DNA from: an uncultured Bacteroidales bacterium
GTDB lineage: Bacteria > Bacteroidota > Bacteroidia > Bacteroidales > UBA10428
Length of the DNA stretch: 64,000 nt
Direction of reading: 5' to 3'
Assembly: GCA_963705125.1 (NCBI GenBank)
Contig: CAVPIY010000011.1
Span: forward strand, 222,953-286,952
Position numbers and translations under genes: made by a program. The notes beneath the pieces are model-generated. The model did no database searches. It had not been told where the DNA came from and saw only the letters and a list, made by a program, of their open reading frames with translations. Below are positions 10,523 through 58,770 of the stretch, one piece after another (the stretch's first letter is position 1; each line of letters starts with the position of its first letter).

Positions 10523-10713
10523 AGGCTGTAGGCTGTAGGGTGGAGAACCGTCATTGCGAGTCCCGATGAAATCGGGATGAAGCAATCTGCAACCAGAAAC
10601 AGATTGCTTCGTCACCTTAGCATCCTACAAAGCAGAAGGAATTATCACGTTTCCTCGCAATGACGCTCACACTCACACCCACACTCACACCCACACGCTA
10701 CAGCCTACAGCCT
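10523..10713. repeat. nested palindromic element of the 'CATTGCGAG...GAAGCAATC' family
   Basis: The core (10548-10665) is 'CCGTCATTGCGAG..GAAGCAATCTGC..GCAGATTGCTTC-like..CTCGCAATGACG'. It is enclosed by outer inverted repeats 'AGGCTGTAGGCTGTAGG' (10523-10539) and 'CTACAGCCTACAGCCT' (10698-10713). The core is about 85% identical by eye to 61822-61937. Confidence 0.75.
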
Positions 10714-22140: not shown

Positions 22141-22349
22141 ACGTCATTGCGAGGGAGTGAAGCGACCAGTCCTAACGTCATTGCGAGGGAGTGAAGCGAC
22201 CAGTCCTAACGTCATTGCGAGGGAGTGAAGCGACCAGTCCTAACGTCATTGCGAGGGAGTGAAGCGACCGAAGCAATCTATTTCCGGTGGGCAGATTGCT
22301 TCGCTACGCTCGCAATGACGCCTTACTCGCTTCACTCGTTCGCAATGAT
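22141..22349. repeat. tandemly amplified half-element of the 'CATTGCGAG' family plus its closing arm
   Basis: The 34-bp unit 'ACGTCATTGCGAGGGAGTGAAGCGACCAGTCCTA' is repeated exactly three times (22141-22242) with a partial fourth copy. It is followed by 'GAAGCAATC..GATTGCTTC' and two 'CGCAATGA' closing arms. Confidence 0.85.
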
Positions 22350-22589
22350 GTTTTTACTTTTCAGACTAAAGATTTAAATCCATTAATGTTGATGCATTTC
22401 TAAATATAATCATAAGTATCAAACCTTTCAGGATAATTTTTAAAAACAGTTTATTCAATGATGAAAAAAAACTGCTATAAAAATGTCGGATATGTTAAAA
22501 TATTATTAGATTTGTTAACAAATGTTAAATCAGATTCAGTATAAGTTCATTCATTTTTAAAAAATTTCTTAACCCTAAAAGCTTTTTTT

Positions 22590-30280: not shown

Positions 30281-30325
30281 TTCCCCTCGCCTTTAGGAGA
30301 GGGGCAGGGGTGAGGTCAGAGGGAT
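30281..30325. repeat. inverted copy of the hairpin repeat closing the decayed DUF559 unit
   Basis: 'TTCCCCTCGCCTTTAGGAGAGGGGCAGGGGTGAGG' has the opposite orientation to the 29726-30147 array. It overlaps the last codons of the 30293-31333 ORF. Confidence 0.75.
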
Positions 30326-31333
30326 TGGAGTAAGGTTATGCGCCACATCCCTGTAAGCTTTCATATTCTCCACAGAAGTATCCGGCGGAATCTCGCATCC
30401 TGCGGATACGATACCACGTCCTTTTGTTGCCAGATAGCATTGCCTGACGCTGTCTTCAATCTTTCCCCGTGTGCCGTCCCGTATAACGGATACCGGATCG
30501 CTGTTGCCCGAAACCACCTGTTTTTTGGAAAGCAAGGGCACGAAATCACCCATGGATGCGACGAGGTGGTCAATGTCCACAATATCAGCTCCGGTCCTGA
30601 TCATATCAGGCAGAATCGCCGTGGTGTTACCGCAAATGTGAAGCTTTACCCGGGCATTCATTTCATGCGCATGGTCAATTAAGGCCTTCTCGCGGGGGAA
30701 AACAAATTCCCGGTACAATTCCGGTGATATCAAGGAACAGACGGCATCACCTATACCAATACAGTGTGCTCCTGCATGAACCTGCGCCGTAATAAAGTTT
30801 ATACCGCTTCCGGTCATCACATCCAGCGCCAGACTGAGCTTTTCAGGATGCTCGTACATATCCATGCAGGCCGCGGAAACATCCCTGATGTCACAATAGG
30901 CTGCAAACGGGCCTTCAACCCAACCGCAGATGAACTGCGTATTGCCGACTTCTCTTTTATAAGCCTCTATCTCACGGATGCGTTCTGCTAACCGGTTATG
31001 TTCAGTCACTTTTAACACCAAAAGCTTATCAATATCCGGGATCTCCCGGATAAAAAATTCAAGCACCTGCGGGAGGTTGTTTTCCGGATAAGAAAGTTTT
31101 GTTCCGTAGGCTTCTGCCTCGGCGAACGCATCGGACATGACATTTACCCAGTCATACGAAAAGTCTGAAGCACACCGGATATTGGTTTCACATTTGGTTT
31201 TATGGTCGAGGCAGAAATCTCTGTATTTTACACCCGCATATTGCGCCGCAAATCGCATCAGTATCGGATGAAAGGGTGGACGGTCTACAGCCAGTCCATT
31301 GATAAAGTCCTGTGTTCTTTGCAGGGAATTCAT
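30293..31333 (-). CDS. uroporphyrinogen decarboxylase (URO-D)/MtaA-like family protein
   Basis: 346-aa ORF with no signal peptide. 'DRPPFHPILMRFAAQYAG', 'LHICGNTT' and 'DIVDIDH' are typical of URO-D/MtaA-type (beta/alpha)8 proteins. The C-terminal ~12 residues are encoded by the repeat. Confidence 0.55.
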   Translation of the reverse strand: MNSLQRTQDFINGLAVDRPPFHPILMRFAAQYAGVKYRDFCLDHKTKCETNIRCASDFSYDWVNVMSDAFAEAEAYGTKLSYPENNLPQVLEFFIREIPDIDKLLVLKVTEHNRLAERIREIEAYKREVGNTQFICGWVEGPFAAYCDIRDVSAACMDMYEHPEKLSLALDVMTGSGINFITAQVHAGAHCIGIGDAVCSLISPELYREFVFPREKALIDHAHEMNARVKLHICGNTTAILPDMIRTGADIVDIDHLVASMGDFVPLLSKKQVVSGNSDPVSVIRDGTRGKIEDSVRQCYLATKGRGIVSAGCEIPPDTSVENMKAYRDVAHNLTPIPLTSPLPLS

Positions 31334-42829: not shown

Positions 42830-43696
42830 TTAATAATGATACAACCCGGGCCTCAGTCCGGTATACCATGGATTTGCCTTACGCATCTCTGCCACCTTAC
42901 CGGGAAATACATCTGCGAGTATAATGCCTTCCTTATCCCATATTTCAGCCATTACTTCTCCTTCGGGCCCGGTGATATTGCTTCCTCCCCGGCAGGGATC
43001 TCCTTCTTCATTCTTTCCGCAGCAGCATGAAACTGCCATGATCATGGAATTGCCTGCGGCGAGGTTTTTAACCTCTTCAGGTCCACGGCTGCCCCGGTTG
43101 TTCATCCAAAAAACCATGGAACAACCCAGGTTCGCATAGGAACGGGTCATTTCAGGAAAATCGCCATCATAGCAGATCATAATTCCACATGGATAACCTC
43201 TGTAATGAAAGGTCACCAGTTTATCTCCCGGGGCATAAAAAGTAGGCTCATGCCGCAATCCCTCCGCTTTCCACCAGAGATGAGTCTTACGGTAATTGGC
43301 AATAACCCCGTCTTTTGAAACAACAGGAGCAGAAATATAATAGTTGTCATTGTCCTTCTCTGTAAGTCCATAGATAATTAGGGATCCGGAACCTTTCAGC
43401 AATTTCTGAAATGCCTGGGTGGTAAAGCCATCAACAGGCTCTGCCAGCTTATGCAGGTTTTTATCATACCCTACCAGCAGTTCCTCATGGAACAAAATGA
43501 TTTCGGCCTGCCGGGCCAGGGCTTTTTCCGCAAAGTCCAGGGCTTTTCTCCGGTTGGTTTCCACCTGGCCCGGGTTCCCATCCTGCTGCACAACAGCTAT
43601 CCGAACCGGTTTCTCAACAAATACATGGGTTGCGCCCATGGTGGTGAAAGCTGCTGTCCCAATAGCAGCCTGTTTCAGGAAAGATCTTCTTTTCAT
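42830..43696 (-). CDS. TAT-exported carbon-nitrogen hydrolase (nitrilase superfamily)
   Basis: 288-aa ORF with twin-arginine signal 'MKRRSFLKQAAIGTAAF'. 'ILFHEELLVGY' (Glu), 'YRKTHLW' (Lys) and 'GIMICYDGDFPE' (Cys) match the catalytic triad contexts. Confidence 0.7.
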   Translation of the reverse strand: MKRRSFLKQAAIGTAAFTTMGATHVFVEKPVRIAVVQQDGNPGQVETNRRKALDFAEKALARQAEIILFHEELLVGYDKNLHKLAEPVDGFTTQAFQKLLKGSGSLIIYGLTEKDNDNYYISAPVVSKDGVIANYRKTHLWWKAEGLRHEPTFYAPGDKLVTFHYRGYPCGIMICYDGDFPEMTRSYANLGCSMVFWMNNRGSRGPEEVKNLAAGNSMIMAVSCCCGKNEEGDPCRGGSNITGPEGEVMAEIWDKEGIILADVFPGKVAEMRKANPWYTGLRPGLYHY

Positions 43697-45582: not shown

Positions 45583-48252
45583 CTATTGTTCTGTTATCAG
45601 ATTTCTTTCCCGCAAAGCCTTTACACCATTTTCCCAGGGTCCGCCAGCTCCCCATATATAATAAGAGAAATACATGGTACTTTTCTGATAAATGGGTGTC
45701 CAGGGTTGGAACTCAGCATAATAATAATGTGCATCTCCATTAACTGGATGGTTCATCCACATATGCAGGAACAAGGGTTCCGTAACCGGAAATGCACCGA
45801 CAAAGGCAATATCTTCCTTTGTATCATAACCTGCATTCCAGCCTTCTTTCAGGAAGAATAACCGGCCATAATATTTTTCCGGCTTCATGATGTACTCATG
45901 CACCCCGTCTTTCTCGGGGATCGTAAATACATCCTCCGTCCAGTGCCTGGCTCCCAGCTCAAGTATGGGCTGGGGACCAAGGACATTTGCTTCTGGATTC
46001 TTAAAGGTAAGTGCAAACTGCACTTCAAGCAAGGGAGAGTTCCCATACAGCGTAAAGATTTTCTCCAGCTTGTTACCATAATAATCTGCGGTCATTTTTA
46101 CCCGTACATAATCACCTTCCTTTTTCAGGATTTCGGCATCATACACTTTATGCGTTTCCATACTGCCCTGTCCCAGGAAATCTTCAAAACCGCCATAGGG
46201 GTAGTATCCTCTTTTTCTGTAAGCTCGTTTTTCATCACTGGCCTTATCGGGCCAGAGTTTAAACAGTATGTTGTCCTGCCGTGATTTAACAATATATTCA
46301 ATTACTCGGGCCCCGGTTGACAGCAAGGTTACCTGTATACTGTCATTTTCCATCCGATATTCCATGATCCCGTCACTGTTCAGATCCACCTCATACACAT
46401 AGGGGGCTCCATTAGCTGCTCCCACGCCGAGCTGACTCAGGTTTTCAACACCCAGGGCTGACACTTTAACCTGGTAACTGCCTGCCGGCACGTCCAGGTC
46501 AAATGACATATCCTTAAAAGTGGCTTTCCCCGTAGTACATGTTTTTGAAGTTGTATATACCACTTTCTTTGGATTGTTTTTATCCAGCACTTCTACTTTC
46601 ACCGGAAATGTTGCTTTGTCAGAAAAATTATGGACGGTCACCGGATAAGTAACTTTGGGAGTATGACCATACAATAACTGGTGGACAGAAATAGCGCGGG
46701 GCAGATCCAGAATTGCCAGGGTGCTCTTTTTGTTGCTGCCCCACTTGTAATGAACGGCGACCGGATTTGTTTTATCCATAGCACTGGCCTGAGGTTGCAG
46801 TCCAAAATCAAGTGTCTTTGAACTGTGGGCTGGCAGATTGACCTGCACGGACAAAGGACCCCCCATTTTCAATTCCGGTGGGAGCACTACCTCAACTGTT
46901 CCGGATACAGGCTGTGCATAGGTATTGGTTATGGTCACCTTAAGCTGGTATTTATCTGTGAAGGCCTCAAGATTGATCCGGTCACCAAAGTATTCTTCCA
47001 GATAAACGCGATCAAGTAACAACAATTCCAGTGCATTGCGGTACAGGGCAGGACCCATCATTTTTCCAATTCCCAAAACACCGACAGCACGCCTGTCCAT
47101 GATGGCATCCCACATGAGTTTCTTTGTCATCGTTTCTCCCTTCTTCGTAAACAGGACCATGCAGGGAATGGCATCACTATCCAGTGTACCGGTTGTTGTC
47201 ACAAACGGAACATCCTCATTGTCTATCTGTTCTTTATTCCCTTCCCCGGCAATATACCCGTCATATACATAGGGATCTGCAGCGGTATCAAATACCTGCC
47301 TGAAAACATAGCCCTCCTTTTCATGTGCATACTTTATCCAGGATTCAGTGGTGAACATACTCTGAACCTGCAAACCATCATAGTTCCTGCATCCGTATAT
47401 TTGTCCGAAACCCACATCAGCCACTACCGGGAGGTTGACTTTGCCAAGCCATTCCACAAGTTCGTTCTGTGCCAGAAAATCCATGTAACCACTGAATGTG
47501 AACCAGGAATTTCCTTCATTCATCCCCTTCCCGATCACTTCAAGCGGATGGCCTGCCGTGCAGGTGACACTTTTCAGCAGGGTTTCCGTACCAAACCATC
47601 CACGACGCAGGTCATACATGTCCAGCAGGTCCTTTGTGCCGTTTATGATTTCCAGAAGCCTTGCCCGCAGTTCCTTGCTTTTCGAGGATATAACATAAAT
47701 CTTCTTCGGTCCGTTTTCGAGGTAAAAAGCCTTTATTTCTGTAAAATCTTTCGCTCCAAACTGATGGCTCTTCAGTTTTTCTTTCCATTCATCCGCCGGC
47801 AACTTTCCCAGGAGCTTTTTGCCTGTTTCGGAATCCGGATCAGTCAATACGAGTATTGCATTATTTCCCGTCGACTCGCCCAGTTTCTGTAGGGTTGGCT
47901 GATCAAGCACAGTGTATTGTGCACCCAGTAAACCATTCATGAAGCTTTCCTGGAGGGATAAACCCGGCATTTTCATGTCGTCGGCAATATCAACCTTGCT
48001 CTGGGCAATGGTGTATTCCACATTGGGTACCGCGATCTTGAAAAGATTTCCATACCGGATCCATTCTCTGTAAATGTCGTGCCAGTAGTTGGTGTATCCG
48101 TTAAATTGAAAACTGGTTGTCACGGTATTCTTATCCGGTTGGAAAGAACCGTTGTACTTAAACTCATCCAGATTCTGAGCATAGGCCAGGCTGCTAATCC
48201 AGACCAGCGCTAATACAGGTAAAACACAGCGTATTTTCACAAAGCGTTTCAT
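45583..48252 (-). CDS. secreted protein of unknown family, tandem paralogue A
   Basis: 889-aa ORF with a signal peptide ending 'LAYAQ'. Roughly two-thirds identical by eye to 48286-50985 and 50997-53705. No catalytic family recognised. Confidence 0.55.
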   Translation of the reverse strand: MKRFVKIRCVLPVLALVWISSLAYAQNLDEFKYNGSFQPDKNTVTTSFQFNGYTNYWHDIYREWIRYGNLFKIAVPNVEYTIAQSKVDIADDMKMPGLSLQESFMNGLLGAQYTVLDQPTLQKLGESTGNNAILVLTDPDSETGKKLLGKLPADEWKEKLKSHQFGAKDFTEIKAFYLENGPKKIYVISSKSKELRARLLEIINGTKDLLDMYDLRRGWFGTETLLKSVTCTAGHPLEVIGKGMNEGNSWFTFSGYMDFLAQNELVEWLGKVNLPVVADVGFGQIYGCRNYDGLQVQSMFTTESWIKYAHEKEGYVFRQVFDTAADPYVYDGYIAGEGNKEQIDNEDVPFVTTTGTLDSDAIPCMVLFTKKGETMTKKLMWDAIMDRRAVGVLGIGKMMGPALYRNALELLLLDRVYLEEYFGDRINLEAFTDKYQLKVTITNTYAQPVSGTVEVVLPPELKMGGPLSVQVNLPAHSSKTLDFGLQPQASAMDKTNPVAVHYKWGSNKKSTLAILDLPRAISVHQLLYGHTPKVTYPVTVHNFSDKATFPVKVEVLDKNNPKKVVYTTSKTCTTGKATFKDMSFDLDVPAGSYQVKVSALGVENLSQLGVGAANGAPYVYEVDLNSDGIMEYRMENDSIQVTLLSTGARVIEYIVKSRQDNILFKLWPDKASDEKRAYRKRGYYPYGGFEDFLGQGSMETHKVYDAEILKKEGDYVRVKMTADYYGNKLEKIFTLYGNSPLLEVQFALTFKNPEANVLGPQPILELGARHWTEDVFTIPEKDGVHEYIMKPEKYYGRLFFLKEGWNAGYDTKEDIAFVGAFPVTEPLFLHMWMNHPVNGDAHYYYAEFQPWTPIYQKSTMYFSYYIWGAGGPWENGVKALRERNLITEQ

Positions 48253-48285
48253 GATAATTGGGTATTATTTGATTAATATGTATAG

Positions 48286-50985
48286 TTATCGTTTACTTAT
48301 CAGATTACGGATCCTTAGCTCTTGCAGGCTGTTTTGCCATTTCCCTCCGGCACCCCACAAATAATAGGTAAAATACGATGTGGTTTTCTGAATAATCGGG
48401 ACCCAGGGCTGGTATTCATTGAAATCATAATGCGCATCCGGATTGGTGGCCAGATTCTGAAACATATGCAGAAACAGGGGACGCTTTACCGGAAAGGCCC
48501 CTACAAAGCTGATGTCTTCCTGCGGATCATAGCCTGAATCCCATCCTTCCTCTGGAAATATTACCTGTCCAACATAGAATTCAGGTCTCATCCGGTATTC
48601 CTTCAATCCGTTCTTTTCCGGTACAGTAAATACATCCTCTGTCCAGTGTTTCTTCCCAAGCACCAGTATTGGCACTGGTGCAATGACATTGGCTTCGGGA
48701 TTAATGAATCTAAAGGCATACCTTACTTCAAGCAGGGGTGAGTTTCCATACAGGGTGAATGTTTTCTCCAGTATGTTGCCATAATAATCTGCTGTCATTT
48801 TTACGCTCACATAATCCCCTTCACTTTTCACAATCTCAGCCGAATATACCTTATGGGTCTCCATACTTCCCTGTCCGAGGAAATCTTCAAAACCGCCATA
48901 AGGATAATAGTTTCTTTTTCTGAATTCCCGCTTGTCATCAACCGGTTTTTCCGGCCAAAGCTTAAACAGGACGTTATCGTTCCTCGATTTCACAAAATAC
49001 TCAATAACACGTGCCCCTGTTGCAAGAAGTGTCACCTGCACGCTGTCATTCTCCATTCTGTATTCGTCAACACCATCGCTGTTCAGGTCAATGGCAGTCA
49101 GGGTTGGTGCGCCCACTGCTTTTCCGACGCCCAGCTGACTGAAATTTTCAACGCCCAATGCAGCAACCTTCACGGAATAGTTACCTGCCGGCAAATCCAG
49201 GTCAAATAATATATCCATGTATGTTCCGGTTTCGGCTGTGCAGGATTTTGAAGCAGTATAAACAACCTTCTTTGGATCATCCTTCTCCACCACCTCAACC
49301 TTCACCGGAAATTCCGCTTTATCTGAGAAATTATGGATACTGACCGGGTAACTGACCTTTGGTGCATGACCGTATAGCAGCTGGTGGACAGAGATTGCGG
49401 GAGGAAGGTCCAGCATGGAAAGCGCACTTTTTTTACCAGTACCCCAGTTGTAATGCAGTGCTATTGGATTTGTCTTAGCCATTGCGGATTCAAGGGGCTG
49501 TATCCTGAACTGCAATGTTTTCGAACTTATGGCAGGAAGACTTACCTGTGCAGACAAGTCATCGGCCATTTTCAATTCAGGAGGAAGCACAATTTCAAGA
49601 GTGCCGGAGACTGCATGTGTATAGGTATTGGTAAGGCTAACATTCAGCAGGTAACCATCTGTGGATGCTTCAAGACTGATACGGTCACCGAAATATTCCT
49701 CAAGAAAAACCCGGTCCAGCAGCAGGAATTCAAGAACATGACGGTAAAGTGCAGGACCCATCATTTTTCCGTTGCCCAGCACAGCCACTTCCCTCCGGTC
49801 CATAATGGCATCCCACATGCGTTGTTTCGTAATCTGATCCCCCTTTTTAATAAACAGTACCATACAGGGAACAACATCATTTTCAAGGCCTCCTGTTGTT
49901 GTTACGAAAGGAACATTCTCCCTGTCAATCTGCTCCTTATTACCTTCACCGGCAATATAGCCGTCATAATGATACAGTTCCGCTGCAGGATCATATACCG
50001 ACCGGAAAGTATAACCACCTCTGTCTTTTGCGAACTTAAGCCATGATTCTATGGTCCACATATTCTGAGGCTGTAATCCGTCAAAGTTTTTGCATCCGTA
50101 AATGGCCTGCTGTGCAATATCATGCACGTAACCGACGTATGCCCCGACATCTGCTATCACCGGAAGATTTACTTTGGACAACCACACATCAAGTTCATCT
50201 TGTGCCAGATAATCCATGTAACCACTGAATGTGAACCAGGTATTGCCTTCATTCATACCCTTGCCGATAACTTCCAGGGGATGTCCGGGTGTAATTGTAA
50301 CACTCTTTAATAATGTCTCCGTTCCAAACCATCCACGGTGCAGGTCATATTTACCCAATAATTCCTTTGAATTTTCAATCAAACCAATGACTTTATCGCG
50401 GAGCTCTTTGCTTTTCGATGAGATCACATATATTTTCCTGGTACCGTTCTCGAGATAGAAGGCATTAACCTCAGTAAAATTCTTGGCATCAAATTGATGA
50501 CTCTTCAGTCTATCCTTCCATTCATCTGCTGGCAACTTTGCCATGAGTTTCTTACCCGTTTCCGTATCCGGATCGGTTAATACCAGAACACCGGACCGGG
50601 TCAATGACTCACCCAGTTTTTGCATGCTGGGTTGATCAAGCAACGTATATGACTCAGCCAGTAATCCATACAGAAAACCCTCCTGGACCGATAAACCCGG
50701 GACCATCATATCACCGGCAATATCCACCTTGCTCTGTGCTATGGTTAATGCCACATTGGGTGATGCTATCTTAAAAAGGTTTCCGAAACGGGTCCATTCC
50801 CGGTAAATGTCATGCCAGTAATTGGTATATCCGTTGAACTGAAATGCTGATTTCATGGCATTTTCGTCGGGGCGTAATGAACCCTTGAATTTGTATTCGT
50901 CCAGATTCTGTGCCGTTAACACATTGCACATCAATAAGAGACCAATTGCCAGTGGATTGAGAAAATTTTTCAAAAGTGAATTCAT
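48286..50985 (-). CDS. secreted protein of unknown family, tandem paralogue B
   Basis: 899-aa ORF with a signal peptide ending 'VLTAQ'. It shares blocks with A and C such as 'FQFNGYTNYWHDIYREW', 'GHPLEVIGKGMNEGN.WFTFSGYMD' and 'YYPYGGFEDFLGQGSMETHKVY'. Confidence 0.55.
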   Translation of the reverse strand: MNSLLKNFLNPLAIGLLLMCNVLTAQNLDEYKFKGSLRPDENAMKSAFQFNGYTNYWHDIYREWTRFGNLFKIASPNVALTIAQSKVDIAGDMMVPGLSVQEGFLYGLLAESYTLLDQPSMQKLGESLTRSGVLVLTDPDTETGKKLMAKLPADEWKDRLKSHQFDAKNFTEVNAFYLENGTRKIYVISSKSKELRDKVIGLIENSKELLGKYDLHRGWFGTETLLKSVTITPGHPLEVIGKGMNEGNTWFTFSGYMDYLAQDELDVWLSKVNLPVIADVGAYVGYVHDIAQQAIYGCKNFDGLQPQNMWTIESWLKFAKDRGGYTFRSVYDPAAELYHYDGYIAGEGNKEQIDRENVPFVTTTGGLENDVVPCMVLFIKKGDQITKQRMWDAIMDRREVAVLGNGKMMGPALYRHVLEFLLLDRVFLEEYFGDRISLEASTDGYLLNVSLTNTYTHAVSGTLEIVLPPELKMADDLSAQVSLPAISSKTLQFRIQPLESAMAKTNPIALHYNWGTGKKSALSMLDLPPAISVHQLLYGHAPKVSYPVSIHNFSDKAEFPVKVEVVEKDDPKKVVYTASKSCTAETGTYMDILFDLDLPAGNYSVKVAALGVENFSQLGVGKAVGAPTLTAIDLNSDGVDEYRMENDSVQVTLLATGARVIEYFVKSRNDNVLFKLWPEKPVDDKREFRKRNYYPYGGFEDFLGQGSMETHKVYSAEIVKSEGDYVSVKMTADYYGNILEKTFTLYGNSPLLEVRYAFRFINPEANVIAPVPILVLGKKHWTEDVFTVPEKNGLKEYRMRPEFYVGQVIFPEEGWDSGYDPQEDISFVGAFPVKRPLFLHMFQNLATNPDAHYDFNEYQPWVPIIQKTTSYFTYYLWGAGGKWQNSLQELRIRNLISKR

Positions 50986-50996
50986 GGTAAGTATTA

Positions 50997-53705
50997 TTAT
51001 TGTTCAGTAATTAGATTTCTGTCCCGCAATGCCTGCACGCCCCTTTCCCATCTGCCTCCTGCTCCCCACATGTAGAAGGTGAAATAGGTTGTCGATTTCT
51101 GAAGTATCGGCACCCAGGGTTGGAATTCATGACAATAAAAATGTGCATCCTGATTTACCGGATGGTTCATGAACATGTGCAGGAATAATGGTGGTTTTAC
51201 CGGGAATGCACTGATGAAAGATATATCTTCCCTTGTATCATAACCAGCATCCCAGCCCTCTGCAGGAAAAAATATCCTGCCATAATATCGTTCCGGCAGC
51301 ATCCTGAATTCCTGTAAGCCATCCCCGGCAGGAACAATGAATACATCTTCTGTTCCGTGCTTTTCGCCCAGTTCGAGAACGGGTACCGGTGCTATCATGT
51401 TGGCTTCAGGATTGCTGAATGTTATGGCAAACCTTACCTCAAGAAGGGGCGAATTTCCATAGAGCGTATAGGTTTTTTCCAGTTTGTTGCCGAAATAATC
51501 AGCTGTCATCTTCACCTGTACTTGATCTCCTTCCTTCCTGGTAATTTCCGCGTTGTACAATTTATGCGTTTCCATGCTTGCCTGCCCGAGGAAATCTTCA
51601 AATCCTCCATAGGGGTAGTAACCTCTTTTCCGGAATTCCCTTTTGTCATCCACTGGTTTTACGGGCCAGATCCTATATAAGGCATTGTCATTCCGGGATT
51701 TTATAATATACTCTATTACCCTTCCTCCGGTCGCAAGCAGGGTTATTTTTACACTGTCGTTTTCCATGATATATTCATCTACTCCGTCATTGTTCAGGTC
51801 GATGGCAGTTAGTTCTGGTGATCCTTCCGCCTTTCCAACACCCAACTGGTTAAGGCTTTCAATACCCAGGGCTGATACATTGACCTGATAACTTCCTGCA
51901 GGCACCTCCAGGTCAAATGCCATGTCACAGAATGTACCGGTTTCAGTTGTGCATGTTTTTATTGTTGTATAAATCACCTTATTTGAATTGTTGATATCCA
52001 GCACCTTTACCTCAACCGGGAAAGATGGCTTATCTGTGAAATTATGAATGGTAACCGGATACGTGAGGCGTGGTGCATGTCCATATAACAGCTGGTGGGC
52101 CGAAATGGCCGGAGGCAAGTCAAGCATGGTCAGTGTGCTTTTTTTACCCTCTTCCCAATTGTAATGCACGGCGATCGGATTGGTACGATTCATGGCATCA
52201 GCCAGGGGCTGTATTTTGAAGTTCAGGGTCTTTGAGCTGTAAGCAGGAAGACTGACCTGGGTTGTCATGTCTCCCCGCATTCGTAACTCAGGTGGAAGCA
52301 CAATCCCGAGTATTCCGGTTACAGCATGCGGGTATGTATTGGTGACCGTTACGCTGAGCTGGTAATTATCAGTAAAGGCTTCCAGATTGATCCGGTCGCC
52401 AAAATGCTCTTCCAGATACACCCGATCGAGGAGCAACAATTCCAGTGCATTACGGAACAGTTCAGGTCCCATCATAAGACCCTTTTCAAGCACTGCAACC
52501 TCACGCCTTTCCATAATGGATTCCCACATAAGCTCTTTTGTGAGTTGTTTTCCTTTTTCCACAAAAAGCATCATGCATGGAACTGCATCACTGTCCAGGG
52601 ACCCTGTATTTGTAACAAACGGAACATTCTCCTTGTCAACGTGTTCTTTGTCTCCCTCACCTGCCAGGTAACCATCATAGGGATACATGTCAGCCGCCGG
52701 ATCATACAATGAACGGAACGCATATCCGTTCCGGTCATGAACATATTTCAGCATGTATTCAAGTGTGTACATGCTCTGAACCAGCAAACCGTCATAGTTT
52801 TTACAGCCGTATATCGCCTGATTGTAAGGGGTAGGAATATAATTCATGTTGGTGCCGACATCTGCAACAACAGGCAGATTGACCCGCCTGAGCCATTCAT
52901 CGATCTCTTTCTGTGCCAGAAAATCCATATAACCGCTGAATGTGAACCACGTATTTCCTTCATTCATTCCTTTTCCAATCACTTCGAGCGGATGCCCTGC
53001 CGCACAGGTGACACTCTTCAGGAGGGTCTCTGCCCCAAACCAGCCCCGGTGAAGATCATACCTGTTAAGCAGATCTTTTGTGGCATTGATGATATCCTGA
53101 AGCATTGTCCGGAGTTCCCGGCTTGTAGAGGAGATAACATATATTTTCTTCGGCCCGTTTTCGAGATAAAACCCCCTGACTTCCGTGAAATCCTTTGCCC
53201 CGAACTGATGACTCTTCAGTTTATCCTTCCATGCATCTTCGGGCAGATTTCCTGCCAGCTTTTTACCTGTTTCGGTTGTGGGATCAGTCAGCACCAGCAC
53301 ACTGGTCTTTCCCAGGGATTCACTCAATTTTTGCAGTGATGGCTGATCCAGCACAACGGTCTGTTCAGAGAGCAATCCATTTATAAATCCTTCCTGAATG
53401 CGTAATCCCGGCATCTTCATATCACCGGCAACATCCACTTTGCCTTGTGCAATTGTATATTCCACATCGGCGGCTGCCATCTTAAAGAGGTTCCCATACC
53501 GGGCCCAGGTCCTGTATGTGTCATGCCAGTAATCAGTATAGCCATTAAACTGGAAACCGCTATTGACCAAATTTATATCCGGATGAAAGGACCCCTTGCA
53601 TATAAATTCATCCAGTTCCTGTGCAAAGGTTTCATTGCTGAGCAAAGTCAGGAACCAGGCAACAAGAACAAAGTGTTTTCTTATGAATAGTTTCATGGAT
53701 AACAA
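50997..53705 (-). CDS. secreted protein of unknown family, tandem paralogue C
   Basis: 902-aa ORF (start possibly at 53696, 'MKLFIRK') with a signal peptide ending 'ETFAQ'. It has the same conserved blocks as A and B. Confidence 0.55.
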   Translation of the reverse strand: MLSMKLFIRKHFVLVAWFLTLLSNETFAQELDEFICKGSFHPDINLVNSGFQFNGYTDYWHDTYRTWARYGNLFKMAAADVEYTIAQGKVDVAGDMKMPGLRIQEGFINGLLSEQTVVLDQPSLQKLSESLGKTSVLVLTDPTTETGKKLAGNLPEDAWKDKLKSHQFGAKDFTEVRGFYLENGPKKIYVISSTSRELRTMLQDIINATKDLLNRYDLHRGWFGAETLLKSVTCAAGHPLEVIGKGMNEGNTWFTFSGYMDFLAQKEIDEWLRRVNLPVVADVGTNMNYIPTPYNQAIYGCKNYDGLLVQSMYTLEYMLKYVHDRNGYAFRSLYDPAADMYPYDGYLAGEGDKEHVDKENVPFVTNTGSLDSDAVPCMMLFVEKGKQLTKELMWESIMERREVAVLEKGLMMGPELFRNALELLLLDRVYLEEHFGDRINLEAFTDNYQLSVTVTNTYPHAVTGILGIVLPPELRMRGDMTTQVSLPAYSSKTLNFKIQPLADAMNRTNPIAVHYNWEEGKKSTLTMLDLPPAISAHQLLYGHAPRLTYPVTIHNFTDKPSFPVEVKVLDINNSNKVIYTTIKTCTTETGTFCDMAFDLEVPAGSYQVNVSALGIESLNQLGVGKAEGSPELTAIDLNNDGVDEYIMENDSVKITLLATGGRVIEYIIKSRNDNALYRIWPVKPVDDKREFRKRGYYPYGGFEDFLGQASMETHKLYNAEITRKEGDQVQVKMTADYFGNKLEKTYTLYGNSPLLEVRFAITFSNPEANMIAPVPVLELGEKHGTEDVFIVPAGDGLQEFRMLPERYYGRIFFPAEGWDAGYDTREDISFISAFPVKPPLFLHMFMNHPVNQDAHFYCHEFQPWVPILQKSTTYFTFYMWGAGGRWERGVQALRDRNLITEQ

Positions 53706-53720
53706 ATCTGATTAAAGATG

Positions 53721-55472
53721 TTAGCGTTTCTTTGCAAGCTCTTCCAGCCTTCTGGCCATCGCTTTACGGGTTATATAAAGTTCCTCCAGGTTCCTGGAAA
53801 ACGTACTCACATCGATGACCAGGTTGTCAATTTGTTTTTCAGCAAAATCACCATCACCCAGATTTTTCAGCATCCACAAATACTCATAATCCTCAATGCC
53901 ATCCCGCAGCAATTCCAACCGCATGGATGAAACAGGGCCATCCACATTGGGCTGTCCTGTGAACTGCTTTGTATAATCTCCCGGATAGATAACGGAACCT
54001 TCGCCATTGAGCACATAACCGCCGCTGCAATGAAATCCGGAAATGTATGTGACGGGATCCAGCCAGGGATTGGGTGTCTGATTCCAAAAATTCATAGCCC
54101 AGTACAAAATACCATTCATATGATAGCGGGCAGTGATCCAGGGAACCATAACCAGATCAAGCGCAGGTGCATCGATAAAATAATTGGGTTGCGGATAGGC
54201 CTGGTCACAGGATATATACCAGGTTGCTTCTCCCCCCTTTGCCTGTTCCTCAATGAGCGCTTTCTTAACTGCCGGCTCGTTCAGACTGTTCCCATGAACA
54301 CAAAAGTTATTTACATAACCACGCAGAGTTCCCCAATCCGGGTTATCACTCACCGGAGATTCCGTTGCCAGAAATGGAACTCCGGGTACTGCTTTATGCA
54401 CAAGTTCTGCCCATTTGCGGGTTTCTTCATAATCCTCCTTTGTATTGGGTTCATCAATCGGACTGTTGAATACCAGCCGGTCAATCCATCCGTTCTTTCT
54501 GAAATAGGATTCAACCGCTTTTAAGTAAACCGTGATTTTCTTGTTAAACTCATCAGAAAATGGTTCGGCAGTAATATGCCTGGTCAAATCATGCGGACCG
54601 GCCTCAAAGATCACCCGCTTGGTTTTTCGCTTGTTGAGATAAAAATCATATCGCTCATCATTGAACTTCACCTCGATATCTTCTCCTTTGACCGTGATTT
54701 CGGGCACAAGCGGATCATTAAACCAGGTCTCCATCCTGTGCTCATACAAAAAATCGAAATATTTACCCGTAAGCTGTTCTATTTCCGGAGAGGAAACCGG
54801 CTTATTGTAAAACCCGGCAAGTTCTCCCTTCGACACATTCATATAAGTGATCAGATGGGTGTCATCGGGAAGGGAGAATCCATATACCTCAACCTGAACG
54901 GTCAGGGTCTCCAGTGCCTTTCCATGCTGGGTAACCGTAACTTTACCGCTATAGGTACCCGCAGGCGTACCGGTGGGAATGGCCACATCAACCCACACCG
55001 GCCTGTTTCCGGTCACTTCATATTGTACGGCCATGCCAAAAGGTTCCCTGACCGGGGCAAGGGCATCGGGCCAGTACCCGGTCGCACCTACGGGGCTCGA
55101 AATGGCATATATCAATACATAATGTTCCAGGTACAGGTTTATCTGTTTCTGCTCAATCTTTTTGCCCTGGGCAGATGTCAGTTCAGTTGCCGTAATAAAG
55201 AATCCGTCGGGAGCTTTCGGCCTCCAGCCAGGAGGGACAGGCGTGGTGATTACAACCTGGAATGCCACATGTTCATTTGCTGCTCCGGCAACTGAGACCT
55301 TTTTATCAGGTTCAGACCAGACCAGATTGCTTTTTTCCACCCTGGCATCTGGACGGACCTTTTGTTCGGCAGGTACTGCCCAAATTTTCACATCACCAGT
55401 TGACACTCCCTGGGCATGCCCGTACATTGCAATAAGGCATAAGCATGTTAAGACTGCTGCATGTTTTTTCAT
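53721..55472 (-). CDS. DUF4091 domain protein (GH123-like)
   Basis: 583-aa ORF with a signal peptide. 'VEVYGFSLPDDTH', 'VPWITARYHMNGILYWAMNFW' and 'GIEDYEYLWML' follow the DUF4091 pattern. It is paralogous to 62016-63857. Confidence 0.55.
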   Translation of the reverse strand: MKKHAAVLTCLCLIAMYGHAQGVSTGDVKIWAVPAEQKVRPDARVEKSNLVWSEPDKKVSVAGAANEHVAFQVVITTPVPPGWRPKAPDGFFITATELTSAQGKKIEQKQINLYLEHYVLIYAISSPVGATGYWPDALAPVREPFGMAVQYEVTGNRPVWVDVAIPTGTPAGTYSGKVTVTQHGKALETLTVQVEVYGFSLPDDTHLITYMNVSKGELAGFYNKPVSSPEIEQLTGKYFDFLYEHRMETWFNDPLVPEITVKGEDIEVKFNDERYDFYLNKRKTKRVIFEAGPHDLTRHITAEPFSDEFNKKITVYLKAVESYFRKNGWIDRLVFNSPIDEPNTKEDYEETRKWAELVHKAVPGVPFLATESPVSDNPDWGTLRGYVNNFCVHGNSLNEPAVKKALIEEQAKGGEATWYISCDQAYPQPNYFIDAPALDLVMVPWITARYHMNGILYWAMNFWNQTPNPWLDPVTYISGFHCSGGYVLNGEGSVIYPGDYTKQFTGQPNVDGPVSSMRLELLRDGIEDYEYLWMLKNLGDGDFAEKQIDNLVIDVSTFSRNLEELYITRKAMARRLEELAKKR

Positions 55473-55544
55473 GTTTAAAAGGGATTAAGGATAGTTTATA
55501 ATGTAATAATCTTTGTATCAACTCAAAAAGGTCCTTAATGAAAC

Positions 55545-55622
55545 ACGTCATTGCGAACGAAGTGAAGCAATCTGCTTTATTACAGGAGATTGCTTCATTC
55601 GCTTCGCTCTTTCGCAATGACG
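55545..55622. repeat. single palindromic element of the 'CATTGCGA..GAAGCAATC' family
   Basis: 'ACGTCATTGCGAACGAAGTGAAGCAATCTGC...GAGATTGCTTCATTCGCTTCGCTCTTTCGCAATGACG'. Confidence 0.8.
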
Positions 55623-55684: not shown

Positions 55685-57661
55685 TCAAGGCATCCCGGCG
55701 ATGTGAAGGGTATGTTTCCCCAATCCTGACGGGATTTCAAGTATCTGTCCTGCAGTCAATGGTTGTTTTAATTTCTTTCCATCTATAAACAACCATGACG
55801 TAGTGCCTACAGTATTCCTGAAATCATCCGATGTTTCAAACGTCCAGTGAGAAGCTTTGTGCTCAAAATATTTACAATAGTGATCATCATAAGAAAATTC
55901 CAGTCCTGGTTTGCTTCCTTTTATGTTAGAAATTTGGGTATGAAGATAGGCACAGCATTCATTAAAACCCATCCATTTCTGATGTTTATGGGTATAAATC
56001 CAGTTCAGGCTATCATGCAGGTTAACTCTCCGGCCGCCGGCAATCTTTGAATCAACAAGCTGTTGTGTGGTCATTTCGGCCAGTTTGTCCCATCCGGCTT
56101 CATTCTGGTCAGCCGGAGAACCAGTCTGCGCGGTAAGATCCAGATCATGACAGGTAAATTGTTCAGGCATCATCATGCTGAATTCAATGGTGTGGTCAAT
56201 GCCGACATAGCATTCCCGGCTTATTCCCAGGCCGGCAATGGCGGCAACCCTTCCATTATCGTCTCCGCCATGGGTACCCTCCCGCAATTCAGCAACCGGC
56301 CGTACCTCGGCTGCCAAAGGTACTACGCCGAAGGATTTTTTTATGGCATCAATACCGGACCTGTATATGAATAACAAATCATTGGAGGGTACGGGTGAAG
56401 CCCCCCGACGAACATCGACAACTTCATTGTACCATTCGGTCACATCCATCTCCTCATCCACCGCACTGCTCCACCATGGTCCGGGAGGTGAATCCAGGTC
56501 CCAGTTCATGTGTGACCAGGCCCGGTGTGCCTGTATTTCGAATACACCTCGTCGAAGGCCCTCGTCAAGACCTTCCTTGGTTGATCCATAGTCCTGCCAG
56601 TTACCGAAAATATCCCTGAATGGTTCAACTGACCAGGGGGTTTCAATCATGCTTGTCAGGGGATTTGCATAACCTGGTGTGATATTCTGGACCATGATCA
56701 GGCCATGCTTTTCCAGTGGTTCAATCAGGTATTTGACAAGAGTATCCCTGGCTGGTGTGGGATAATGCCACCTCAGGCTGTAGGCATGTTCACTGCAGCC
56801 GATATCATCCATAATAAATATATAGCCATTTTCAAAATTATCATTAAATACCCCGTACCCGATTGTATACACTAGTGACCTCCTGAAAATTGTCCGCAAC
56901 GCGGGATATTTGCGGAACGAATCCTTCCCGCCTCCTATCCACACAATTTTTGTATCATGACTGAAATCCCGCGCAATCAACTGAGGTAAGTTGCCAACAG
57001 TTCCCAGCACGGAAGCCGAGTCCCCGGGAATGCAGCGGATCTTAACCGTCATGTCAGCCGGCAAACTATCAGCCATTTCGGCCGTAATATAATGCTTGCC
57101 CGTCAGAATAAGGTTGTTCCTTGTTTCCAAATCTTTATTTTCAGGGATATCCTGGTATTCAATATCAATCAGGTCGGCAAGCGGTTTCGTCCTGATATAA
57201 TCAAATAAGGCAATCATGCTAATTCCGTACTTTTCAACGGCCATTTTTAGTGTTTTATAGTTGGCAGAATATCCGTTCAGTTTGTCCGGATCTGCCATCC
57301 ATATCATACAGCCATAGTTCGGTTTTGCCTCACCGTCGAGGAAACGGTTGATCTGCAGACGCTGTTCATCCAGCCGGAGTATGTCAAACGGGATCCCCCA
57401 AATTTTCAGCATGGAAATCACATCAATAAAGTCTTCTCCATCGACCCTTCTGGAATCGATGTGATAACTCAACGGATCCTTCCACTGATCGCCAATGATA
57501 ACCAGAACCCGGAACGGCTTGACCAGTGTACTTTGTTCACCGCTGGTTGTTTGGTTTTTACCTTCCGGCACATGATCGGTTCTGCGGCAGGCGGCAAATG
57601 ATACGAAGGCTACCAGAAGGTAAGCAAGCATGACACGCGGATGGTAAATACAGCTGTTCAT
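55685..57661 (-). CDS. hypothetical lipoprotein, translationally coupled to the upstream acetyltransferase gene
   Basis: The ATG at 57661 forms an ATGA overlap with the stop of 57658-58770. It gives 'MNSCIYHPRVMLAYLLVAFVSFAAC' (signal plus lipobox). The ORF-track start (57874) lies inside the upstream gene. No family recognised. Confidence 0.5.
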   Translation of the reverse strand: MNSCIYHPRVMLAYLLVAFVSFAACRRTDHVPEGKNQTTSGEQSTLVKPFRVLVIIGDQWKDPLSYHIDSRRVDGEDFIDVISMLKIWGIPFDILRLDEQRLQINRFLDGEAKPNYGCMIWMADPDKLNGYSANYKTLKMAVEKYGISMIALFDYIRTKPLADLIDIEYQDIPENKDLETRNNLILTGKHYITAEMADSLPADMTVKIRCIPGDSASVLGTVGNLPQLIARDFSHDTKIVWIGGGKDSFRKYPALRTIFRRSLVYTIGYGVFNDNFENGYIFIMDDIGCSEHAYSLRWHYPTPARDTLVKYLIEPLEKHGLIMVQNITPGYANPLTSMIETPWSVEPFRDIFGNWQDYGSTKEGLDEGLRRGVFEIQAHRAWSHMNWDLDSPPGPWWSSAVDEEMDVTEWYNEVVDVRRGASPVPSNDLLFIYRSGIDAIKKSFGVVPLAAEVRPVAELREGTHGGDDNGRVAAIAGLGISRECYVGIDHTIEFSMMMPEQFTCHDLDLTAQTGSPADQNEAGWDKLAEMTTQQLVDSKIAGGRRVNLHDSLNWIYTHKHQKWMGFNECCAYLHTQISNIKGSKPGLEFSYDDHYCKYFEHKASHWTFETSDDFRNTVGTTSWLFIDGKKLKQPLTAGQILEIPSGLGKHTLHIAGMP

Positions 57662-58770
57662 ATCCTGATGAATATTTTTTTCCGGTACATCCAGTATAAT
57701 ATAAGCCAGATAACAGCAAATGCAGCAATGGCCTGAACAGCTGCGTTCCATAGCCCGAGCCATTTTCCAAGTCCGCCGACAAAAACATTTCCGATGAGTG
57801 TAAAGTCGAACAGGTTTGCAGCAACATAAACCGCAATTGCATTCATGCCAATTACCACAAATCCAAAGGCCCATTTCCGGTATCCCAAAACATCAATAAT
57901 CAGGTAGAAAATAACCAGGAGCAGGGTACTCAGTCCTCCGGCATAAAGCACCAGTGAGCTTGTCCACAGATGATGGATAATCGGGAACCAGATCCCCCAT
58001 ATTTTACCGGATATCAAGCACCCAACACCCAGCAAAGCCAGCCATTTTGCTTTGATAAAGGCTGGTTGGTCTGACATGATTATGCGTCCGGCAAAAACGC
58101 CAATCATGACAGATCCTACAAATGTCATATTTGAAAGGATGTATGTCCACCCCATTCCTTCCTGGAATTTACCCAGCAACAGATCATCTATATAAATTGC
58201 CAGGTTTACGTCATATTCATAAATACCGGCGCCATGCCCGGGAACAGGAACAAGCGCCATAACTCCCCAATACAGGAATAATAGTACCGTTGGAATAGTG
58301 ATTTGCCATACAAGGCCGACTTCAAGGATCAGAATTGAACTCACCAGATAACCAAACGCAATGCAATGCAGTGTGTTTGTATACAGGTGGAGTTTATCCA
58401 AATCGAATTCCAGTATATGACCCGATGTGACAAGACCCAGCACATAGAGTAAAAGAACCCTTTTTATAATATGTGAATAGAGTTGTTTCTTACTCTCCCC
58501 GTGTGCCAGGCGCTTTTTGAATGAAAAAGGCATCACCACACCAACAATGAAAAGAAAAAGCGGCATGATCAGATCGTAAAAATGAAACTGCCCCCAGGTG
58601 TGATCGAAATGTACCGGGACATTCTTTAACAGGCCAATACCTGAAGCTTTAGCCAGGGAAACAAAGATTTCGCTGCCTCCGATTATCCAGAACATATCGA
58701 ATCCCCGCAGGGCATCCACACACATGAGACGTTTACCTGTTTCCACCGCCTGATCACCTGCCTGTTTCAT
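57658..58770 (-). CDS. DUF5009/DUF1624 membrane protein (heparan-alpha-glucosaminide N-acetyltransferase / NagX-like)
   Basis: 370-aa ORF. N-terminal 'RLMCVDALRGFDMFWIIGG' followed by roughly ten hydrophobic segments. No signal peptide. Confidence 0.6.
   Translation of the reverse strand: MKQAGDQAVETGKRLMCVDALRGFDMFWIIGGSEIFVSLAKASGIGLLKNVPVHFDHTWGQFHFYDLIMPLFLFIVGVVMPFSFKKRLAHGESKKQLYSHIIKRVLLLYVLGLVTSGHILEFDLDKLHLYTNTLHCIAFGYLVSSILILEVGLVWQITIPTVLLFLYWGVMALVPVPGHGAGIYEYDVNLAIYIDDLLLGKFQEGMGWTYILSNMTFVGSVMIGVFAGRIIMSDQPAFIKAKWLALLGVGCLISGKIWGIWFPIIHHLWTSSLVLYAGGLSTLLLVIFYLIIDVLGYRKWAFGFVVIGMNAIAVYVAANLFDFTLIGNVFVGGLGKWLGLWNAAVQAIAAFAVIWLILYWMYRKKIFIRI

Follow-up and report, generated by a model that had tools for sequence, protein, structure and literature searches.

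In sediments, soils, oceans and guts, Bacteroidota play a major part in degrading complex glycans, and much of the machinery of their polysaccharide utilization loci (PULs) is labelled ‘hypothetical’. The galactose-mutarotase-like beta-supersandwich is a fold common to many protein families, among them the enzymes GalM and YeaD, glycoside hydrolase (GH) families such as GH38 and GH57, and the DUF5107-TPR protein BDI_1685 of Parabacteroides distasonis. Here we describe three tandem genes, A, B and C, and a downstream partner gene, P610, carried on a 64,000-nucleotide (nt) stretch of DNA from an uncultured Bacteroidales bacterium (UBA10428; GenBank GCA_963705125.1, contig CAVPIY010000011.1, positions 222,953–286,952), referred to throughout as the window. 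On the evidence of structure models, A, B and C are classed as predicted multi-domain carbohydrate-active proteins built round a mutarotase-fold domain. The family is probably carbohydrate-active and new: the family itself, its architecture and its orphan partner are unannotated, whereas the fold of its C-terminal domain is already well known.

The A, B and C proteins and their C-terminal domain

A, B and C follow one another on the minus strand. Paralogue A (45583–48252) encodes 889 amino acids (aa), B (48286–50985), the copy used for structure modelling, 899 aa and C (50997–53705), first of the three in the operon, 902 aa when read from a TTG codon; these lengths, and the spacers of 33 nt (B-A) and 11 nt (C-B), agree exactly with the open reading frame (ORF) listing and with the original prediction. 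An in-frame ATG three codons into C, at 53696, gives an 899-aa protein, the form held in the protein database (P0064), and is probably the true start. Each protein begins with a basic/hydrophobic signal sequence ending in A-x-A followed by Q, so that the cleavable signal peptides ending in A-Q that had been proposed are found in all three copies; in B the signal peptide covers residues 1–25 (50911–50985, minus strand), with cleavage predicted from sequence between LTA and QN. Glutamine at position +1 is the signal peptidase I pattern of Bacteroidota. Pairwise identities in a three-way alignment are 69% (A-B), 69% (A-C) and 67% (B-C), in line with an earlier estimate by eye of about two-thirds, and the same alignment contains every conserved block quoted in that earlier account: FQFNGYT.YWHD, GHPLEVIGKGMNEGN.WFTFSGYMD, GEG.KE..D.E.VPFVT.TG, LLLDRV.LEE.FGDRI.LEA and YYPYGGFEDFLGQ.SMETHK.

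The three are genuine genes, not chance ORFs, because the family has more than 1079 database relatives, 227 genomic relatives and conserved synteny. The window’s own sequence is present in freshwater and sediment metagenomes, and metatranscriptome coverage of A, B and C consists of low-depth, patchy contigs from one sediment metatranscriptome, which is weak evidence of transcription.

The original description of these proteins as belonging to no recognisable family was upheld, with none of the Pfam, NCBIfam, PDB sequence or profile, or whole-chain Foldseek searches placing them significantly, and none of the profile or structure searches placing them confidently in a characterised family. Pfam returned nothing significant for A, B and C (below threshold, CarboxypepD_reg and Big_7 matched mid-protein, and residues 633–671 matched the opening 40 positions of PF09095), nor did NCBIfam (a faint YidC N-terminal match at residues 643–762), and no Pfam-A or NCBIfam model scored above its curated cut-off for the family. 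Searches of all PDB sequences with the family, by phmmer and with two profiles, gave Ig-like (immunoglobulin-like) noise only. The more than 1079 relatives came from a word-indexed search of 5.8 billion proteins; the best 120 of them are all at least 65% identical, are unnamed or ‘hypothetical’ and have no precomputed Pfam domain. A profile search run exhaustively over 1.84 billion cluster representatives recovered 251, mostly fragments, none of which connects to a known family. Members from cultured strains are ‘hypothetical’ in RefSeq/UniProt (Aureibaculum luteum WP_117882107; A. algae QCX37217 / A0A5B7TQL5), and their accessions appear in no paper in the literature searched. The 227 genomic relatives are from GTDB representative genomes, with close relatives confined to Bacteroidota (Bacteroidales, Prolixibacteraceae (Mariniphaga), Rikenellaceae, Cytophagales, Chitinophagaceae, Sphingobacteriales and Flavobacteriaceae); several distant members, from the set at 25–48% identity, are without signal peptides. 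No match to the family was found by tblastn against plasmids.

The full-length AlphaFold2 model of B (predicted local distance difference test, pLDDT, 75; predicted template modelling score, pTM, 0.74) opens with a signal helix and an N-terminal motif; an alpha/beta domain and two Ig-like sandwiches follow, and the C-terminal domain, rich in beta strands, is modelled with uneven confidence. This matches the proposed layout of a ~430-aa N-terminal region, two Ig-like segments and a ~270-aa C-terminal domain. Whole-chain Foldseek searches returned only Ig-rich proteins from PDB (C3b, LacZ, transglutaminases) and were also dominated by Ig-rich proteins in BFVD, with template modelling (TM) scores of no more than 0.2 in both cases, and therefore no solved structure has this architecture. 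The two Ig-like beta-sandwich domains (residues 435–621 of B; 49123–49683, minus strand) comprise strands 436–527 and 531–621, modelled at pLDDT ~90, and this region accounts for weak CarboxypepD_reg and Big_7 Pfam matches and for Foldseek matches to the Ig-type domains of C3, LacZ and transglutaminase.

Residues 622–899 of B (48289–49122, minus strand) were also modelled separately, from an input alignment that included distant members, giving 18 strands plus a terminal helix (pLDDT 89.6; pTM 0.91). The best PDB neighbour of this domain by Foldseek is the DUF5107-type protein BDI_1685 (5cd6; E 3.8e-10, query-normalised TM (TMq) 0.65). YeaD (2htb) follows with TMq 0.65 and target-normalised TM (TMt) 0.61 (root-mean-square deviation 5.2 over ~300 columns), Lactococcus lactis GalM has TM 0.62 and galactose mutarotases of L. 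lactis and human 0.58–0.62; overall, YeaD, GalM, HI1317 and Slr1438 match with Foldseek probability 1.00 and TM 0.58–0.65, a range that also takes in YidC-P1. Further neighbours are an NDH subunit and the supersandwiches of GH36, GH38 and GH57 enzymes (7uft, TM 0.58; 1k1x, TM 0.49–0.53; 8k7u; 3mi6). By this model the C-terminal domain has a galactose-mutarotase-like fold, as had been suspected, with YeaD, GalM, YidC-P1, the DUF5107 protein and the GH36, GH38 and GH57 supersandwiches as neighbours at TM 0.5–0.65. The fold agrees with faint profile matches across A, B, C and 12 representatives at 25–48% identity: PF09095 in 9 of these 15 (best E 0.015), Glyco_hydro_38C (PF07748) in one and DUF5107 (PF17128) in one, the last at E 0.0074, below the curated cut-off (true DUF5107 neighbours reach 8.6e-126). 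Comparison of the domain with DUF5107 by hhalign was sub-significant (P ~0.006 over 84 columns, on the first supersandwich hairpin). A PL4-type lyase was also considered for the fold and rejected, with no PL4 structure among the top 50 Foldseek neighbours.

Conservation was assessed in an alignment of the same 15 sequences and, separately, in one of 73. The polar residues that stay invariant in the wider family, down to 25% identity, are all in the C-terminal domain, instead of in the N-terminal domain that had been taken as the likely catalytic part. D633, D637, G638, E641, E645, N646, R659, K666, E700, K741 and W815 are invariant in the C-terminal domains of the 15 sequences, and H711, D820, H840, N844, N848, E857 and Q859 are kept in at least 90%; 70–73 of the 73 sequences retain D633, D637, E641, E645, N646, R659, K666, E700, H711, K741, D784, D820, H840, N844, N848, E857 and Q859. 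The group from D633 to E641 forms a D-x-[ND]-x-D-G-x-x-E loop. DxDxDG is the classic calcium-binding pattern, and the D-x-N-x-D-G-x-x-E loop of the family is a probable Ca2+ site.

A set of invariant polar residues (R689/R691, H711, D784, D820, H840 and E857-x-Q859) has the order, and nearly the spacing, seen in aldose 1-epimerases. Counted from the glycine of the first hairpin, the offsets in B are 32/34 (Arg), 54 (His), 127 (His/Asp), 163 (Asp) and 200 (Glu), against 30, 51, 120, 164 and 223 in Escherichia coli YeaD. Read by eye, LHGG of GalM pairs with METH of the family, NHVYF(N) with TEDVF (NH(I/V) in two members), GYDH with GYD, LQFYSGN with FLHMF.N, and LALESE of GalM or VCVETA of YeaD with E.QPW. 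The position of the acid His is Asp784 in the family and His in 2 of 73 members. L. lactis GalM mutants among the Foldseek hits (H96N, D243N, E304A) mark these positions as the mutarotase active site. By order and spacing, the invariant residues would match those with which aldose 1-epimerases bind the sugar and catalyse its conversion (Arg, His, His, Asp, Gln, Glu); if so, the family would have retained the pocket but exchanged the acid His for Asp and the Gln for His (H840).

Divergence of the copies and the P610 partner

Comparison of 17 A-type, 10 B-type and 11 C-type orthologues identified 18 positions fixed within each type and distinct between types. The C-terminal domain (278 positions) has 14 of them, concentrated at 769–775 and 835–855, on the strand that precedes D784 and on the loop and strands to either side of H840 and E857, while the 355-residue alpha/beta domain has three; the copies therefore diverged mainly around the putative pocket. 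As originally noted, A lacks residues after ADVG that are present in B and C (exactly 10; alignment columns 287–296), and diverging specificity had been read from this loop. The indel is one of the three alpha/beta sites and a minor difference beside the 14 of 18 sites in the C-terminal domain, and the ADVG loop is not the specificity-determining region. A, B and C are nevertheless predicted to differ in specificity, probably accepting different sugars or linkages of one complex glycan, because their divergence flanks H840 and E857.

The order C-B-A-P610, with orthologous copies at each position, is found in three other loci (L001, L004, L008), and B-A or C-A in many more. A recent tandem duplication or an assembly artefact is ruled out by this shared C-B-A order in other genomes. 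Every single-copy locus carries an A-type gene, and the A-type copy adjoins P610 in all multi-copy loci but one; on both grounds A represents the ancestral copy. B and C arose from old duplications and persist in a single Bacteroidales lineage, and independent duplications have occurred in other lineages (L044, L050, L049, L053, L067).

P610 (43725–45557, minus strand) encodes a 610-aa secreted orphan directly downstream of A. Across 72 family loci from GTDB representative genomes, the only window proteins with homologues almost everywhere are the family (72/72) and P610 (59/72), and most of the 13 loci without P610 are cut by contig ends. P610 is always preceded by one to three family genes in the same orientation: one family gene with P610 in 39 loci, two in 12 and three in 8, with two family genes and no P610 in 8 and one alone in 5. 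Seeding with P610 instead, a family member lies directly upstream in 67 of the 72 metagenome loci with room for it; in the exceptions P610 stands beside GH20-like, GH5, FG-GAP/ASPIC, URO-D, BNR or sulfatase genes. One to three family genes with a downstream P610 are the conserved unit.

P610 has no Pfam, NCBIfam or PDB match, and at 61–96% identity across Bacteroidota it is more conserved than the family. Comparison of the two by hhalign was sub-significant, as was that with DUF5107 (P 0.006–0.03 over all these comparisons), but since the best match of P610 to the family places P610 residues 284–338 on the first supersandwich hairpin, the C-terminal half of P610 may have the same fold. Family and P610 together are a promising candidate for a new system of carbohydrate processing, because one partner has a sugar-binding-type domain and the genes almost always adjoin. 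A minimal cassette is present in two cultured hosts, A. luteum and A. algae. In A. luteum SM1352 (L052, 8702–15382) it consists of a LacI-type regulator, one family gene, P610 and a CBM9-like lipoprotein gene, lies outside any SusC/D locus and adjoins nusA/infB, and would be a convenient experimental model.

Candidate functions

We tentatively prefer the reading in which the mutarotase-fold domain is the functional centre, binding one pyranose and performing acid/base chemistry at or near the anomeric carbon, tuned in each copy and coupled to P610. It is the correspondence of residues with aldose 1-epimerases that suggests a pyranose pocket; the geometry of the pocket, its chemistry, its substrate and its interaction with P610 are predictions built on the observed fold, conservation, clustering of paralogue sites, gene pairing and secretion signals. 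A, B and C would act as old, secreted and probably periplasmic paralogues of ~890 aa in a module with P610. The pocket would hold a single pyranose, most likely from an imported oligosaccharide, of which it would be either the reducing end or a sugar already released. Acid/base chemistry in the pocket, at or beside the anomeric carbon, could interconvert anomers or else carry out a step of hydrolysis or elimination. Contacts specific to each lineage would come from the alpha/beta domain, the shared product would pass to P610, and the three pockets would be tuned to different sugars or linkages of one glycan. Enzymatic activity of the family is a prediction. A bolder and unlikely proposal is that the family and P610 form a new two-protein system in which a mutarotase-derived pocket (Asp for the acid His, His, Glu and the Ca2+ loop) cleaves or transforms glycosidic linkages. 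If true, such a catalytic pocket would found a new CAZy family on a fold not so far used by glycoside hydrolases, with tandem paralogues supplying differing specificities for an amino-sugar-rich environmental glycan.

Several observations weigh against placing the functional centre in the mutarotase-fold domain. Pfam Aldose_epim (PF01263) matches neither A, B and C nor the 12 diverse members, even at E ≤5, and hhalign found no significant alignment of the C-terminal profile with the individual GalM and YeaD sequences of E. coli, so that the active site is mapped from the order and spacing of motifs, by eye and not by structural superposition. Mutarotase-fold domains are often non-catalytic, as in YidC-P1, the NDH subunit and the accessory domains of GH2, GH31, GH36, GH38 and GH57 enzymes, all of them among the Foldseek neighbours. 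Within Bacteroidota, 33% of the columns of the N-terminal alpha/beta domain are invariant across the three orthologue groups, and this domain, whose fold is not matched to a known family, could be the catalytic part in that clade. P610 as a whole is likewise not placed in any known family, and the substrate is inferred from gene neighbourhoods that vary.

The alpha/beta domain (residues 81–434 of B; 49684–50747, minus strand) alternates strands and helices at pLDDT mostly 80–94. Were the protein a glycoside hydrolase of conventional multi-domain build, this domain would be its catalyst, possibly as a degenerate (beta/alpha)7 barrel, and the mutarotase-fold domain would gate or shape the active site. 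This reading is the strongest of the alternatives, of doubtful but appreciable likelihood. The succession of alpha/beta domain, sandwiches and C-terminal supersandwich resembles GH38, GH57 and GH2, the GH36, GH38 and GH57 supersandwiches and the weak PF09095 and Glyco_hydro_38C matches point the same way, and within Bacteroidota the N-terminal domain is strongly conserved, with many invariant D, E, H, K and R residues; E102, E246, D332, E351, D354 and D424 are acidic positions conserved in this clade. The top alpha/beta-containing Foldseek matches of full-length B are PHP-type proteins, in which a barrel is followed by a sandwich domain: 3e38_B in PDB (TMt 0.44, E 2e-8) and A0A8S5S364 in BFVD (TMt 0.41, E 3e-9), over ~370–384 aligned columns, both from whole-chain queries with TM normalised to the target. 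However, once members at 25–33% identity are included, the N-terminal polar residues are no longer invariant and the C-terminal ones are: across the 15 sequences, residues 80–434 contain no invariant His, Asp or Glu, and only glycines, prolines and aromatics remain. The PHP metal-ligand motifs are not conserved, Pfam PHP has no match in the family, and the likeness to a PHP barrel is a weak lead, not an assignment. No GH model in Pfam matches the N-terminal domain (Glyco_hydro_57 and Glyco_hydro_38N in none of the 15 members), and diagnostic sites are far sparser there (3 of 355 positions) than in the C-terminal domain (14 of 278).

Preceding the alpha/beta domain is a conserved but poorly modelled N-terminal motif, FQFNGYTNYWHDIYREW..GNLFK (residues 38–80 of B; 50748–50874, minus strand), in which G52 and W57 are invariant family-wide and Y53 nearly so, and pLDDT falls below 50 at residues 37–44 and 54–76. 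A 678-aa metagenome protein, P0208, shares 57% identity over its first 113 residues with residues 9–120 of B (window 50626–50961), carrying a lipoprotein signal and the motif FQFN.YTNYWHDIYREW..GNLFK..AQSK.DIA ahead of a GH42-like TIM barrel. Either the N-terminal motif is a movable module or the P0208 contig is a chimera.

A second alternative, that the proteins are non-catalytic carbohydrate-binding or scaffold proteins presenting periplasmic oligosaccharides to P610 and other enzymes, the paralogues differing in binding specificity, appears quite improbable. The non-catalytic mutarotase folds of YidC-P1 and the NDH subunit are among the closest neighbours, no catalytic signature of a known enzyme family was detected by Pfam or NCBIfam, and family copy number varies while P610 stays single, all of which would suit such a role. 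However, an invariant set of His, Asp, Asp, His and Glu with Arg and Lys at 25% identity is more typical of catalysis; glycan-binding proteins of Bacteroidota are usually surface lipoproteins, whereas A, B and C have signal peptidase I signals; and distant members lack signal peptides and lie among cytoplasmic sugar-catabolic genes. Very improbable, finally, is an oxidative (3-keto) or eliminative route in which the family or P610 would be a lyase, hydratase or isomerase acting on keto-sugars from neighbouring GFO/IDH/MocA dehydrogenases: GFO/IDH/MocA, DUF1080 and GH109 genes are present in the window, in 5 loci DUF1080 immediately precedes the module and in 8 an FAD oxidoreductase is nearby, a GFO/IDH/MocA gene comes directly after the distant member P0147, and P0130 has DUF1080 and URO-D genes close to it, but oxidoreductase and DUF1080 neighbours occur in a minority of loci, the minimal Aureibaculum cassette has none of these neighbours, and we know of no mutarotase-fold lyase or hydratase of the 3-keto pathway.

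Gene neighbourhood and relation to known systems

In the window, C, B, A and P610 sit within a co-directional block that starts with a GH123-like (DUF4091) gene (53721–55472, minus strand; Pfam GH123_cat 2.9e-26), 15 nt upstream of C, and ends with a carbon-nitrogen hydrolase gene (42830–43696, minus strand; Pfam CN_hydrolase 6.2e-32), 28 nt downstream of P610. These appear to be the first and last genes of one operon, with gaps of 15, 11, 33, 25 and 28 nt, followed by a terminator-like hairpin at 42599–42578 on the minus strand. The end genes are not part of the conserved unit: the CN-hydrolase gene is absent from related loci, and co-occurrence with DUF4091, raised in the original prediction, failed in all 72, where the conserved partner is P610. 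Membership in a GH123/DUF4091-linked system was ruled out on this ground. Rfam had no matches in the window, and a sigma-70 promoter scan of it was uninformative, as expected for Bacteroidota.

The block is part of a large locus that encodes SusC/D, GH78, GH95, GH109, DUF2961 and DUF4832 proteins, together with four GFO/IDH/MocA oxidoreductases, a DUF1080 protein (3-keto-disaccharide hydrolase), two URO-D-like proteins, two CN-hydrolases and a ROK-SIS-ANTAR protein. Among 140 loci in which neighbours were counted, the gene after P610 encodes a CBM9-like protein of ~240 aa in 31, GH78 in 27 and DUF5107-TPR in 7, and a DUF5107-TPR gene lies directly upstream of the module in 11. Other recurrent neighbours are a 984-aa orphan, BNR/sialidase-like and DUF4838 proteins, ROK regulators, an FAD oxidoreductase, DUF1080, GH20-like proteins and esterases. 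Distant signal-less members at 27–29% identity (L156, 7172–10544; L158, 34–3388) are preceded by a GATase1_like (PF07090) gene and not followed by P610, and L156 also holds NanA-like, DUF4838, GlcNAc 2-epimerase and PIG-L deacetylase genes. These neighbourhoods, which are circumstantial, suggest an amino-sugar-rich glycan as substrate, possibly also with rhamnose or sialic-acid-like sugars.

Other features of these loci were recorded. The 984-aa ORF of the window (36336–39290, minus strand) matches no Pfam family and has a faint CBM_11 match; its homologues travel with GH78 downstream of the module in ~14–16 other loci, making it another orphan family tied to the family-P610 system. In L016 (1501–4224) and six others a secreted protein of ~810–910 aa without a Pfam match lies near the module, carrying GD(I/M)H(V/I)HRNCG, reminiscent of PHP/CehA-type metallohydrolases. 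URO-D-like genes recur (window 3767–4930 and 30293–31333, minus strand; L145 5921–7000, directly after P610; L161 2924–4090, near a distant family member), and sugar demethylation is a guess at their role in glycan loci. The ORF at 27993–29801 (minus strand) is an unusual regulator fusion of ROK sugar-kinase/repressor and SIS sugar-isomerase domains with a C-terminal ANTAR RNA-binding antitermination domain. Two ORFs without a Pfam family (55685–57874 and 57658–58770, minus strand) overlap by 217 nt as listed, the downstream one probably starting later than its first ATG; homologues of the 370-aa ORF of this pair (P370) adjoin the module in several related loci.

A repeat family ending in CTCGCAATGACG is present at 55546–55622, 22142–22350 and 10650–10665 (nine matches in the window, 0.39 expected). 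The copy at 55546–55622 forms a long perfect-stem hairpin (-41.4 kcal/mol, z -6.8) in the gap of 212 nt that precedes the GH123-like/C/B/A/P610 block; at 22142–22350, just upstream of SusC, four copies are in tandem with a 34-nt period and two more are on the opposite strand, and the copy at 10650 is single. A metatranscriptome depth spike (192) in the bin 55128–55578 probably comes from this repeat.

More than 1000 members of the family across Bacteroidales, Cytophagales, Chitinophagales, Sphingobacteriales and Flavobacteriales are without Pfam, NCBIfam or PDB representation, and near-constant pairing with P610 defines a two-gene unit. Were the mutarotase-fold domain catalytic on glycosides, it would give CAZy a new catalytic scaffold and aid the annotation of thousands of metagenomic loci; were it a mutarotase or serve for binding, it would at least account for a block that recurs in glycan loci and has had no explanation.

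Among known systems, GalM and YeaD share with the C-terminal 278 residues of the family the same beta-supersandwich (TM 0.58–0.65) and, by eye, R, H, D, D, H and E-x-Q in the same order at nearly the same spacing. They differ in being free cytoplasmic enzymes, where the family domain is the last quarter of a secreted multi-domain protein of 890 aa; the family also lacks a sequence-level match to them (Aldose_epim, hhalign), has D784 at the acid His and H840 at the Gln position, and adds the D-x-N-x-D-G-x-x-E loop. The DUF5107-TPR protein 5cd6 is the closest structural neighbour of the C-terminal domain and is uncharacterised too, and genes of its type adjoin the family-P610 module in 16 of 140 loci; the family has no TPR repeats, a different domain order and the weak PF17128 match in a single one of 15 members. 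Literature searched on DUF5107/5cd6 and on mutarotase-like catalytic domains in PULs yielded nothing relevant. PHP-type (beta/alpha)7-barrel proteins (3e38, BVU_3505; phage A0A8S5S364) are the only alpha/beta structures ranking high in both PDB and BFVD, but at TM 0.41–0.44, with their His/Asp metal motifs not conserved in the family and no Pfam PHP match. GH38 alpha-mannosidases, GH57 4-alpha-glucanotransferases, GH36 alpha-galactosidases and GH2 LacZ likewise combine alpha/beta domains, sandwich linkers and a supersandwich, the last of these shared with so many families that its presence in GH57, GH38 and the family is not diagnostic. None of their catalytic-domain models matches the family, whole-chain TM is no more than 0.2, and in A, B and C and their relatives it is the supersandwich, rather than the alpha/beta domain, that holds the invariant polar residues.

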